Virus genome (UHGV): UHGV-0061377
DNA from: a virus
Reading direction: 5' to 3' (one strand)
Length of the DNA stretch: 44,710 nucleotides
Below are positions 5,268 to 8,357 of the stretch, one piece after another (position 1 is the stretch's first letter; each line of letters starts with the position of its first letter). Below the pieces are notes generated by a model. The model was not told the DNA's origin. It did not search any database and saw nothing but the letters and a program-made list of their open reading frames with translations. The position numbers were made by a program, and so were the translations under genes.

Positions 5268-5558
5268 TTAGTGATTCAGGCCGTTACCGCGTCCGTCGAG
5301 AAAAACTTCCACGAGCAAATCACGGGTATAAGTGCGCTCGATGCCGCGATGCAGATAAAGCCGTCCGCGTAAATTAGCTGATGCAGTCCAGGTACCATCT
5401 TTGTGTTTGACCAGCATTCCTGGCATGACCGCACCTCGATTAACGGTCTGCGTTCCGTAATGTTGATGAACCATAAAAACTCCTGCCCGTAAGCTGGGCT
5501 GCTGAACATATAGAGACTTCTGCGCGTATTCAGGCGGTGGATGGCCGCCGGTTGTCAT
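5268..5558 (-). CDS. Hypothetical protein in the kil/cIII position downstream of pL
   Basis: 96-aa reading from an internal ATG with a GAGG about 11 nt upstream. The longer 136-aa reading starts at TTG. No lambda Kil or CIII similarity recognised. Confidence 0.4.
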   Translation of the reverse strand: MTTGGHPPPEYAQKSLYVQQPSLRAGVFMVHQHYGTQTVNRGAVMPGMLVKHKDGTWTASANLRGRLYLHRGIERTYTRDLLVEVFLDGRGNGLNH

Positions 5559-5751
5559 AACTAAGCCGCCTCGTTGAAGCGACTGAGGTATGAGGTGTTG
5601 AGTTGATTTCAGCTGGTCACACCGACGTTCACACGTCCGTTTCACCCCTCGCACTCCCCGGAGCCTGCTGAAATTCAAGCTGCGGATCTAAGCGGTCATC
5701 GCAACGGTGAATCAGGTGGTTGCCGTATCGTTGTGTTGTTGCGATGAACTC

Positions 5752-5806
5752 ATTTAAAACTATGGTTGTTTTACCGTCAACAACAAAAGTTGTTTCATTG
5801 GTTGTT
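5752..5806 (-). promoter_or_regulatory. OL-like operator with candidate pL promoter
   Basis: Near-palindrome ATGGTTGTT-N8-AACAACAAA at 5762-5787, paralogous to the OR palindrome, plus an extra GGTTGTT half-site at 5800-5806. On the minus strand, TTGACG (5780-5775), 17-bp spacer, TTAAAT (5757-5752). Confidence 0.5.
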
Positions 5807-5920
5807 TTAGATATAACTGGTTGTATTTAGGATGGATTTATTTTGTGACTTGCATCGCATAGCGATAACTGAAGCGGGGGGTATGGTGGTTTTTTGAACG
5901 GTGTGTGATGAGGGGAGGCA

Positions 5921-5946
5921 AAAGAAAACCCGGCACGACGGCCGGG
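5921..5946 (-). terminator. Intrinsic terminator ending the cI-side operon
   Basis: GC-rich hairpin cccggc-acgacg-gccggg at 5929-5946, followed on the minus strand by TTTTCTTT. Lies directly after the stop of the membrane-protein gene. Confidence 0.6.
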
Positions 5947-5954
5947 GAGGGGGG

Positions 5955-6461
5955 TCATTTTAATCTATCAAGGAGTGACTCTCTTTCCTTCTTCTCTGAT
6001 TCTCTTCGGTTTAATAACGCTTTAAACTCTTGAAGCTCAACCATTATTTTATGAACGAATACACTGGTATAGAGAGAAATAAAGAGTAATCCACCTGAAA
6101 TTTTTAAGACCCTGAAGAGTAGGGCTTGATCATTTGTGCTTGCTATTAACCCCAAGATTACAAACAAAGTTGAAAATACATAGAAAGCTAATAATAAAAC
6201 CAATTTCAGTCTCTTGGATTTGACTATTGGCACTAATCGCCTAACCTCACTAGGGGTTAAAGACGAGTGGTCATTGGCCTCATTTGCCTTAAAAATGGCT
6301 TGTATACAATATGATAATGGCAATTGCATGAGTCCAACCACAGCCCACGGAGCAGTTAGGACAACACCCGGTGTAATATAGCCCAATGCTGACTTGAACA
6401 AAAAGTAACCAGCAAAATAGAAGACCAACATACCAATAAGGTGGATGATGTTCGATTTCAT
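5955..6461 (-). CDS. Small integral membrane protein (4 predicted TM helices, charged coiled-coil-like C-terminal tail); distal gene of the repressor-linked module
   Basis: 168 aa. Hydrophobic segments at roughly residues 5-22, 29-57, 85-108 and 119-136, then a tail rich in E/K/R (NRRESEKKERESLLDRLK). AT-rich codon usage. No family recognised. Confidence 0.65.
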   Translation of the reverse strand: MKSNIIHLIGMLVFYFAGYFLFKSALGYITPGVVLTAPWAVVGLMQLPLSYCIQAIFKANEANDHSSLTPSEVRRLVPIVKSKRLKLVLLLAFYVFSTLFVILGLIASTNDQALLFRVLKISGGLLFISLYTSVFVHKIMVELQEFKALLNRRESEKKERESLLDRLK

Positions 6462-6482: not shown

Positions 6483-7109
6483 TTATTTTGCAACCAATTC
6501 TCCGGCATCAAGTTTTGAGAACAGCCACTTATGCATTTTTAAGAATAAATCATTTTCATCAATAATGCCATTGTTATATTCAACGCTAATTTTTCCGGAT
6601 AATTTTATCTCTTTTCCCGTTATTTCCCCACCGCCTTGAAGTTTGATGCTAATATCATCCTCATCTAGATGTCGTAGTGAGGTAGCAATACTGTCTATAA
6701 CAGCTTGACCGCTATCATTTGTTTTTCTGAAGTATGTAATCTCGAGGCTTACTTGTAAATTGGCCTCATCTAATGAATCTTTAATGTTTATATCATTTGC
6801 CCAGTTATCGCCAAAAAATGCTTTTAGTAGCGCACCTCCTTTCCCTATTGGGCGGTATTTTATTGTCTTCACCGAACCATTTGAAAAGGAGGGTGTTTGG
6901 TTCTCTGAATTTTTAACTTCTGAAGTAATGGGTAATCCACCAATTTTTATGCTCTTGGCTGGTGCTTTCTCCATTTTTTTCATCGTTTCTTCGGATGGCT
7001 TATCTTGAAGCATTAACACAGATTCTTTTTCATCTGTGAATGTATTAATTAGCCAATTCAAATGCGCCTCAAGCTCCCTTGCTCGAAGCGATGTGGATTG
7101 AACGATCAT
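6483..7109 (-). CDS. Hypothetical soluble protein; middle gene of the repressor-linked module
   Basis: 208-aa ORF, AT-rich, rich in K/N/I/E/D. No obvious Shine-Dalgarno. The reading frame stays open upstream to the poly-A tract of the preceding ORF. Confidence 0.55.
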   Translation of the reverse strand: MIVQSTSLRARELEAHLNWLINTFTDEKESVLMLQDKPSEETMKKMEKAPAKSIKIGGLPITSEVKNSENQTPSFSNGSVKTIKYRPIGKGGALLKAFFGDNWANDINIKDSLDEANLQVSLEITYFRKTNDSGQAVIDSIATSLRHLDEDDISIKLQGGGEITGKEIKLSGKISVEYNNGIIDENDLFLKMHKWLFSKLDAGELVAK

Positions 7110-7147
7110 GACATGGTTGTTTAGTACACCAAAATATAAAATTGAAT

Positions 7148-7504
7148 CTACAAACTCTCTTTTTTGTCACTACGTTTATCTCCATCAATAATTATATCAT
7201 TAGACGTGATGGAGTTAATGTCATAAAATTTAACATTATCACTAAGCTCTAATAGAGACTGGCTTTTGTCTTTTTCAAATAAAACCAGTTGCCCAAAAAG
7301 TATAGTTTTGTATGTGTCGCTTTTATTTAAGAAACGATACCCCGAATTTTCATCTGAAGGTGTTATTTTTTCTTGTCTACTAAGTACTTTTTCTGCAACG
7401 CCGCCCTCACCTATAATACTAAGTAGTATGTTTTGTAATGATGATTTGCTGTGTGGGATTACTGCTTTTTTATAATGAACGACTTTTTGTCTGTTATCTT
7501 TCAT
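7148..7504 (-). CDS. Hypothetical protein; first gene downstream of cI in the module (possibly the N-terminal part of a frameshifted longer gene)
   Basis: 118-aa ORF, AT-rich. Ends 6 codons after an A6 tract (plus-strand T6 at 7160-7165). Confidence 0.5.
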   Translation of the reverse strand: MKDNRQKVVHYKKAVIPHSKSSLQNILLSIIGEGGVAEKVLSRQEKITPSDENSGYRFLNKSDTYKTILFGQLVLFEKDKSQSLLELSDNVKFYDINSITSNDIIIDGDKRSDKKESL

Positions 7505-7561
7505 TGCTATAGTCCAACTAGTATTGAATAAATAAACACAGTAAAGACATAAAAATTTCTT

Positions 7562-7591
7562 ATAGCTACCGATAACGTAATCGGTAGCTAT
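7562..7591. promoter_or_regulatory. Perfect 12-bp-stem hairpin between cI and the downstream module
   Basis: atagctaccgat-aacgta-atcggtagctat. On the minus-strand transcript it is followed by AAGAAAUUUUU. Candidate terminator, attenuator or protein-binding site. Confidence 0.5.
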
Positions 7592-7626
7592 TACAAATCA
7601 ACCAAAGGTAATTCTTTACATACTAC

Positions 7627-8316
7627 CTACCCATGCTTCCTGTAGGTCTGCGGCATGCTCCCAATAACTTTCCCGAAGATAAACACCCGGTTCATCTCGT
7701 CTTTCTCAATTGGGTCCCACGGCGAGTAGCTCTTGTTATCAGAGATAACCAGTAGCTTATCCTTCATCATTTGCAGGCGCTTTACATGGGCTGTGTCGTC
7801 GTACAGAAACGCATAGATACCATCACCGTCGAAAGATTTAACTGTGATATCAACGAACAGCAGATCACCTGGTTCGATCGTTCCTGACATGCTGTCACCA
7901 CGCACGTTAATGATGCGGATATTTTCCGCCTTCCTACCATCGAACATGTGACGAGCATCGTCAAACGAGTACTCAACCGAGCGTAGAACTTCTACAAACT
8001 CACGGTTGATGACTCCCGGCCCAGCACTGACTTCTATATCAAGAACGTCAATCTTAAAGTATTTGGAATGGCTGACAGTTGATAGTATTGGTTGCACTGT
8101 ACTGTCTGACATATTTCCAACGCCAGAAGATAACCATTCTGCGCGCACACCCAAAGCGTTCGCGATCTCCACGATTTTAGTTGTTTGGTTAGCTTTCCCT
8201 GTTTCGATTTTCTGAATAGCAGCTTGGCTAACCCCGACCAAATCCCCAAGCGCCTTTTGTGTAAGGCCTCGCGCTAATCTGGCTTCTTTAAGTCTTTCTG
8301 AGAGTGTTGTTTTCAT
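7627..8316 (-). CDS. cI: CI-type prophage repressor (N-terminal HTH_XRE, C-terminal S24 LexA-like autopeptidase)
   Basis: Trimmed to the internal ATG (MKTTLSERLKEARLARGLTQKALG...). HTH at the N-terminus; S24 Ser/Lys dyad context (VRGDSMSGTIEPGDLL ... HVKRL). Divergent from the cro-like gene across the operator. Confidence 0.9.
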   Translation of the reverse strand: MKTTLSERLKEARLARGLTQKALGDLVGVSQAAIQKIETGKANQTTKIVEIANALGVRAEWLSSGVGNMSDSTVQPILSTVSHSKYFKIDVLDIEVSAGPGVINREFVEVLRSVEYSFDDARHMFDGRKAENIRIINVRGDSMSGTIEPGDLLFVDITVKSFDGDGIYAFLYDDTAHVKRLQMMKDKLLVISDNKSYSPWDPIEKDEMNRVFIFGKVIGSMPQTYRKHG

Positions 8317-8357
8317 AGTCCAAATGTACAACCAAGGTTTTATTCCATCAAACGAAA

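Follow-up and report, generated by a model that had tools for sequence, protein, structure and literature searches.

A stem-loop at the joint between cI and a Rex-like gene pair in a lambda-type prophage immunity operon

Introduction

The immunity operon of phage lambda (PRM-cI-rexA-rexB-TIMM, with PLIT inside rexA) is the closest described system to the locus considered here, which is a spacer of 122 nucleotides (nt; 7505-7626) between the repressor gene cI and a rexA-like open reading frame (ORF) in the virus genome UHGV-0061377, a stretch of 44,710 nt referred to below as the window. The element under study is a perfect hairpin within this spacer. Both systems comprise a repressor, a spacer of about 110-120 nt, a RexA-fold protein, a small membrane protein and an intrinsic terminator, arranged with the same strand logic; lambda shares homologous spacer DNA with the relatives of the module, and expression of the membrane gene greatly exceeds that of the rexA-like gene, as a PLIT-like promoter predicts. 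Lambda differs in that its spacer holds no 12-bp palindrome at this place; a G-rich hairpin of 6 bp, unrelated to it, lies closer to rexA, and the spacer fold is not significant (z = -1.8). Furthermore, the proteins are alike only at the level of the fold (10% identity), and cI and rexA of lambda are reported to share PRM only, with PLIT serving rexB, while expression of the rexA-like gene at the present locus can rise above that of cI.

Three classes of element offer further comparisons. Intercistronic stabiliser hairpins such as the REP and BIME elements, for example between malE and malF, are expected to block 3' exonucleases and favour the upstream message. Like them, the hairpin is a stable stem-loop that stands between two cistrons and has no U-tract; unlike them, it is single-copy per genome and rare, with no family consensus and no Rfam match. 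With Rho-independent terminators it shares the 12-bp stem, the 6-nt loop and a U-rich stretch 6 nt further on, and it is set apart by the absence of an adjacent U-tract and by an A-U-rich base. Template-switch (fold-back) mutation generates quasi-palindromes, and the likeness here consists of an ancestral arm, an adjacent inverted copy and a centre made of the short self-complementary ACGT. This last comparison rests on relatives 81-82% identical at the protein level, and the duplication is inferred in this way because no hairpin-less member was found in the lineage of at least 99% identity.

Results

The hairpin is real and very stable. On the plus strand its arms, ATAGCTACCGAT (7562-7573) and ATCGGTAGCTAT (7580-7591), enclose the loop AACGTA (7574-7579), and the minus-strand transcript of the core reads AUAGCUACCGAU-UACGUU-AUCGGUAGCUAU. 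Between the cI stop codon (7627-7629) and the stem lie 35 nt (7592-7626); on its 3' side the transcript continues as AAGAAAUUUUUAUG, leaving 57 nt (7505-7561) before the ATG at 7504. A sequence-only reading of the window had described a perfect 12-bp stem with a 6-nt loop about 35 nt past the cI stop, a given sequence 3' of it and some 55 nt remaining, and had proposed a folding-energy calculation; coordinates and sequence agree with that description, and the calculation returned a stable stem of -17.7 kcal/mol for the core, present in both the minimum free energy and the centroid folds of the spacer. The core contains 5 G-C pairs among its 12 bp and is A-U rich at its base. Beyond two 1x1 mismatches, outer GAUUU/AAAUU pairs extend the duplex in the spacer fold to 18 pairs across 20 positions (12 + 1 + 5 bp, two mismatches) and bring the energy to -20.7 kcal/mol, the outer helix thus being weak with its contribution of 3 kcal/mol. 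The whole spacer folds at -29.5 kcal/mol on the transcript strand (z = -3.0, equalled by 0 of 200 shuffles), and the plus strand gives z = -4.4.

By inverted-repeat scan the core is the longest perfect hairpin of the window. A perfect stem of at least 12 bp with a loop of 3-10 nt occurred in 2 of 60 Markov-1 random sequences of 44.7 kb, which makes the stem unusual for the window as a whole and very unlikely by chance within one 122-nt spacer. Viewed as DNA it is a 30-bp palindrome with a CG step at its centre and 28 of 30 positions symmetric, the symmetry reaching into the loop (ACGT).

Comparison with relatives assigns different histories to the two arms. In the closest relatives (L017-22 and L054, with 80-82% protein identity) homology of the leader begins only at the ORF-proximal arm, where ATCGGTAGCTATAAGAAATT of the window aligns with GTTGGTAGCTACAAAAATT of L017; the counterparts of the arm itself are TTGGTAGCTAC in L017 and CATAGCTGATAAC in lambda. 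The relatives' leader is homologous to the cI-rexA spacer of lambda, CTGGTCGGCGCATAGCTGATAAC, and the common ancestry of the two spacers is well supported by these alignments. The relative L020 keeps a remnant of a similar cI 3' end followed by ...GACGTTTGGGTAGCTAAAATAAAC, and compared with it the window has about 31-32 extra nt, which hold the cI-proximal arm and the loop. This arm and its outer extension are the reverse complement of the ancestral arm and its tail: a hand count gave 19 of 23 positions symmetric on either side of the central ACGT, with the inner 12 perfect, and the ACGT is already found in L020 (...GACGTTTGGGTAGCTA). Since one arm is homologous to the lambda spacer while the other arm, the loop and the flank belong to a single lineage, an inverted duplication at a mosaic joint is the best reading. 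It is accordingly well supported by comparison that, one recent lineage of E. coli acquired an insertion of about 31 nt, by which some 20 nt of spacer came to lie in inverted copy beside their template, centred on the pre-existing ACGT, and a fold-back or template-switch inverted duplication would be the simplest origin. In phages that share this cI, the gene is followed by varied cargo (HipA/HipD, a lipoprotein, a 357-aa gene) or by nothing, and homology among these phages breaks exactly at the cI stop. None of these other cargoes behind the same cI, nor the empty site, begins with a comparable hairpin, which is thus not a general feature of the hotspot.

Copies of the hairpin, including diverged ones, were sought in complete E. 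coli genomes, IMG/VR (by protein and by pattern), GTDB genomes, metagenomes and assemblies. The spacer with its hairpin occurs in 42 of 5426 complete E. coli genomes, always in single copy, at the same locus, with the same module and at least 99% identical. It was also recovered from 12 IMG/VR contigs, where a 30-mer pattern finds only the same block, and from 4 identical metagenome contigs. No equivalent hairpin was present in 41 regions upstream of homologues of the 340-aa rexA-like protein (22 genomic, 6 viral, 6 assembly and 7 metagenomic; 40-82% identity). Being absent from every relative with a homologous spacer, it is not a conserved regulatory device. For covariation, diverged hairpin copies were not found in these collections, the carriers all being at least 99% identical and the next relatives, at 81-82% protein identity, having no hairpin. 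When polymorphism was compared across 15 copies, the C-terminal domain of cI (7663-8100) had about 35 polymorphic sites, and from about 7662 to 5955 there was one common single-nucleotide polymorphism plus a T6/T7 indel. The final 35 nt or so of cI share this near-clonal block with the spacer and the module, the polymorphism boundary lying near 7662. Judged by this pattern, the hairpin belongs to a recently spread, near-clonal block, which is present on at least two cI alleles and in hosts from many animals.

The stem falls within the range of intrinsic terminators (5-14 bp with a loop of 3-8 nt). A U-tract, taken as at least 5 U per 8 nt starting 0-2 nt past the stem, is absent, the eight nt after the core being AAGAAAUU, and the site is missing from the calls of the terminator scan. 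A U-rich stretch starts 6 nt downstream of the core stem and adjoins only the weak extended stem (UUUAUGUC; tail UUUAUGUCUUU). With no U-tract next to its stem, the hairpin is not a canonical terminator. Rfam 15 covariance models gave no match over 7505-7626 even at E <= 10. Assignment to the REP/BIME elements was rejected, given a single copy per genome at always the same locus in 42 of 5426 genomes, without a family consensus.

A sigma-70-like promoter (-35 and -10 hexamers at 16-18 nt spacing, matching at least 9 of 12 positions) was not found in 7505-7626, nor one of 8/12 or better in the 57 nt after the hairpin, and the best relaxed match on the minus strand of 7440-7800 reached 7/12. The AT-rich stretch after the hairpin, which had been thought able to hold a promoter, thus yielded none on prediction, and better candidates lie inside the rexA-like gene (Table 2). 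When the relatives' leaders were compared by eye for a promoter at a conserved position, the candidates proved inconsistent, TTGACG-17-AATATT being confined to L020-22 and TATAAT to L054, and the idea was dropped.

Expression could be followed in E. coli LF82, whose prophage Perceval is 100% identical to the window over 7490-7640. The RNA-seq values (S1 and S4 Tables of PMC9928086; Table 1) are gene-level counts from libraries that are possibly not strand-specific, and RNA ends are not placed by them. The ratio of rexA-like to cI was about 0.2-0.5 in overnight lysogeny broth (LB) and about 0.5-0.8 after 1 h in Dulbecco's modified Eagle medium (DMEM) and after 1 h and 6 h in macrophages, with a swing of some 30-fold from LB overnight to DMEM at 6 h. 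The membrane gene was highest in all conditions, at 2-10 times cI; it stood 81-fold over the prophage background and 4-80 times over the rexA-like gene, which points either to a PLIT-like promoter within the operon or to a 3' segment of very high stability. The genes kil, gam and bet were at background. Downstream expression is uncoupled from cI in both directions, a drop after cI being usual. Because its level does not stay in constant proportion to cI, there must be promoters or stability determinants that do not depend on PRM.

Table 1. Expression of the immunity operon in E. coli LF82, as log2(fpkm+5) (fpkm, fragments per kilobase per million), two replicates per condition
Gene	DMEM 1 h	DMEM 6 h	LB overnight	Macrophage 1 h	Macrophage 6 h
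cI (LF82_154)	7.98/8.10	7.05/7.19	6.23/6.35	7.84/7.90	6.67/6.83
rexA-like (LF82_153)	7.42/7.75	9.59/9.57	5.19/4.15	6.95/6.93	6.48/6.39
membrane gene (LF82_152)	9.09/9.26	10.19/10.36	9.66/8.44	9.49/9.64	8.96/8.95

These ratios bear on two proposals of the sequence-only reading. The need of the module for a promoter of its own, like pLIT of lambda, is strengthened, the LF82 values demanding such PRM-independent determinants, and the analogy is apt because the module consists of a RexA-like protein and a membrane partner. The proposal of a terminator or attenuator that uncouples cI from the module holds in so far as expression is uncoupled and fails in its terminator part, for want of a U-tract and of a call by the scan. 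Nothing in the LF82 counts maps the uncoupling to the hairpin.

Discussion

We tentatively favour, with rather less than even confidence, a role for the junction-born stem-loop as a leaky RNA barrier, or protector of the cI 3' end, that lowers read-through into the rexA-like gene. Each PRM or PRE transcript leaving cI would form the stem-loop far enough beyond the stop codon (35 nt) to lie outside the reach of the terminating ribosome. Because no U-tract adjoins it, the hairpin would be a leaky terminator or pause site at most, causing weak pausing or termination; more likely, the stem would block 3'-to-5' exonucleases after endonucleolytic cleavage in the AU-rich leader, and the cI segment would then outlast the rexA-like segment. 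By either route read-through expression of the first Rex-like gene would drop below that of cI, with the Rex-like genes also being driven from promoters of their own. Several observations weigh against such a role. The same operon exists without the hairpin in L054, L017 and lambda, which makes the hairpin dispensable for the operon, and the ratio of rexA-like to cI rises to about 5.5 in DMEM at 6 h, so that at least one condition is governed mainly by other determinants. The counts, being per gene, are matched equally well by differential decay, by termination and by promoter effects. The block is almost monomorphic, and conservation and covariation therefore cannot show selection, while a recent neutral duplication equally predicts a perfect stem.

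The last point leads to the alternative that the hairpin is a neutral scar, a by-product of fold-back or template-switch duplication at a mosaic joint with no selected role and only incidental effects on RNA, which we regard as almost as probable as the favoured role. The hairpin stands exactly where the homology of the relatives' spacer ends, in a region downstream of cI that is highly mosaic and in which cassettes are flanked by cI 3'-end repeats; mosaicism here, with accessory genes between the repressor and N, has already been described (PMC7067206). The relatives without the hairpin and the near-clonal state of the carrier block are also in keeping with a scar. On the other hand, a stem of -18 kcal/mol in a constitutively transcribed operon must have some physical effect, and the block has spread to at least two cI alleles and to hosts from many animals. 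All mismatches (3/22 in the register of the repeat tool) fall outside the inner 12 bp, which is weak evidence against neutrality, randomly placed mismatches doing so with a chance of about 0.08.

Two further explanations we consider improbable, and to the same degree. In one, the palindrome would be a DNA operator for a dimeric host or phage protein, acting as a roadblock or promoter regulator that makes Rex-like expression condition-dependent. Such an operator would account for a symmetry that runs into the loop (ACGT), where an RNA hairpin has no need of it, and would suit the condition swing of about 30-fold; a CG-centred palindrome presumably also resembles operators of the LacI/GalR type. 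A fold-back at ACGT explains the symmetric centre equally, and the motif GGTAGCTA is confined to the two arms and occurs nowhere else in the window, with no promoter nearby and no candidate binding protein identified. An operator for the phage's own cI was rejected, the arms being unrelated to the AACAACC/GGTTGTT-type operator-like repeats of the OR region at 8329-8415. In the other, RNase III would cleave the interrupted duplex of about 20 bp and so separate cI and rex-like mRNAs with different half-lives. Known substrates of RNase III in E. coli, among them T7 R1.1 and the sib and N-leader sites of lambda, span this duplex length, and the ratio of rexA-like to cI does vary both ways; the weakness of the outer helix (3 kcal/mol) tells against cleavage.

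Slimmer still is the chance of a regulated gate, in which a dimeric DNA- or RNA-binding factor would read the CG-centred 30-bp symmetry, or the RNA form of it, and set how much of the transcription of cI passes into what would be a Rex-like abortive-infection pair, although such a gate, if true, would account for the roughly 30-fold swing in LF82. Least probable of all is an efficient intrinsic terminator that would end most PRM transcripts after cI and leave the Rex-like genes wholly to their own promoters: the stem is strong, its extended form has the tail UUUAUGUCUUU and the rexA-like gene is at 0.17-0.45 times cI in LB overnight, but the core tail is AAGAAAUU, the scan is silent, the outer stem is rich in A-U pairs and interrupted by two mismatches, three conditions show a ratio of 0.5-0.8 and the true operon terminator lies at 5946-5929.

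Taken by itself, then, the hairpin would be one more intercistronic stem-loop tuning the expression of a prophage immunity operon, or a mere recombination scar. As a marker it gives a nucleotide-level view of how a cargo joint after cI may be built, from an ancestral lambda-type spacer and an inverted duplication. Following it exposed an unannotated Rex-like pair that is found across Gammaproteobacteria and whose expression is strong in an E. coli lysogen associated with Crohn's disease. Should the ratio of cI to Rex indeed be set by the stem, this would bear on how prophages hold a potentially toxic exclusion system below the level of their repressor.

The surrounding operon and other features of the window

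The region is shown to be a lambda-type immunity operon on the minus strand, running from PRM through cI, the spacer, the rexA-like gene and the membrane gene to a tImm-like terminator (Table 2), and by gene order and terminator it is organised like its lambda counterpart. The module sits between cI and the immunity terminator and is expressed in the LF82 lysogen. The call of this immunity terminator is in keeping with the background levels of kil, gam and bet in LF82, and the same terminator follows about 130 nt after cI in the cargo-less phages Turner and PhiR34_1, which carry a cI as in the window; a literature search on the PhiR phages returned nothing relevant.

Table 2. Features of the cI-module region in the window
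Feature	Coordinates	Strand	Description	Basis
Core hairpin	7562..7591	-	perfect 12-bp stem, 6-nt loop	sequence and folds
Extended quasi-palindrome	7554..7599	-	46 nt, ACGT centre	fold; inverted-repeat scan (22-nt arms, 86%)
ORF-proximal arm	7562..7573	-	transcript 3' arm, ATCGGTAGCTAT	alignments A3, A4, A5
Lineage-specific DNA	7574..7626	-	loop, cI-proximal arm (7580-7591), 35-nt flank	alignments; only with module at least 99% identical
AU-rich leader of rexA-like gene	7505..7561	-	weak Shine-Dalgarno (GGA)	homologous to L017/L020/L054 leaders
cI repressor	7627..8319	-	helix-turn-helix and S24 peptidase	Pfam, annotations
rexA-like gene	6483..7504	-	340 aa in relatives, two ORFs (118 and 208 aa) in the window	
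Best promoter-like site downstream of cI	7191..7218	-	TTAACT-16-TG-TATAAT, 10/12, inside rexA-like gene	consensus match only
Weaker promoter-like sites	6857-6885, 6731-6759	-	inside rexA-like gene; possible pLIT analogues	consensus match only
Membrane protein, rexB position	5955..6461	-	168 aa	hydrophobicity; partner in relatives
tImm-like intrinsic terminator	5929..5946	-	CCCGGCCGTCGTGCCGGG then TTTTCTTTTG, 8 nt past membrane-gene stop	terminator scan

The cargo is a divergent, previously unannotated Rex-like pair, Rex exclusion itself being putative. The rexA-like protein has the RexA fold, with similarity to the lambda protein at fold level and 10% identity, and proteins homologous to its 340-aa form occur widely, at 39-82% identity, among Enterobacterales, Aeromonas, Pseudomonas and Methylococcaceae. 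The 118-aa ORF named in the sequence-only reading is in fact the N-terminal part of this frameshifted 340-aa gene: a 1-nt deletion in the T-run at 7160-7165 (T6, not T7) splits it, and the coding sequence is intact in E. coli strain 317 and in phage Perceval. The IMG/VR locus L023 seems to have the same allele, shorter by 1 nt, and in PHROGs each half has a family of its own (phrog_29708 and phrog_33638) besides the full-length phrog_3482, so split copies recur; the split could be a sequencing artefact or homopolymer slippage.

The membrane protein has three hydrophobic segments above the cutoff, a fourth visible by eye (about residues 30-55) and a charged C-terminal helix, and the partner is retained in L017, L020, L049, L051 and L054. 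It has no Pfam match and no sequence similarity to lambda RexB. Among Pfam models, the RexA and RexB families included, none matched the module proteins; PADLOC, NCBIfam and, by sequence, the PDB gave no useful match, and PHROGs and a BFVD fold search returned only families of unknown function and uncharacterised proteins, respectively.

Other joints after repressor genes show repeats of their own. The last 35 nt or so of such cI genes (..GCCGCAGACNTACAGGAAGCATGGGTAG) form direct repeats flanking small membrane-peptide cassettes downstream of repressors, at 2330-2600 in L020 and at 1460-1730 in L067 and L068; in the window (7627-7662) this sequence lies where the near-clonal cargo block begins (about 7662) and marks its boundary. 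This cI 3'-end repeat looks like a recombination handle for cassette exchange. Lambda-type cI 3' ends with spacer remnants (GGCCTGA.GAG..G.TTGG.TGA.CGG.AAG...CTGGTCGGCGCATAG) precede unrelated cargo in other prophages, the stretches in question being L069 (lambda) 1780-1827, L020 2880-2925 and L067 1715-1790, and the start of the lambda spacer is a partial repeat of its own cI C-terminal codons (GGCAAGGTG). In L051 (2445-2500), a 78% identical relative, a rexA-like start lies only 46 nt after a different S24 repressor gene, and a perfect 7-bp hairpin (TAATCAG-TGTC-CTGATTA) overlaps the repressor stop, so that an inverted repeat again accompanies a tight junction. This hairpin was given no weight as parallel evidence, being within chance expectation (about 0.1).

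Elsewhere in the window, no N-like ORF was found at 5679-5954, between the immunity terminator and a kil-like gene (5268-5678), and the annotation of Perceval likewise has none. Between cI and cro, a 25-bp palindrome at 8358-8382, ATGGTTGTTGACTAAAAACAACCAT, was called terminator-like on both strands and is more plausibly an operator that overlaps a -35 box (TTGACT); half-sites related to it (ACAACCA/GGTTGT) occur at 8329 and at 8403-8415. A cluster of inverted repeats of the type TTACC(T/C)GAATCAGGTAA at 9240-9329, inside the O-like replication gene (8721-9818), resembles the iterons of the lambda origin. Just past the replication genes, an ORF of 1302 aa (10766-14674) begins with a signal-like N-terminus, contains long tandem repeats of about 115 aa that are identical in part, and resembles a moron-borne adhesin of the invasin/intimin type.
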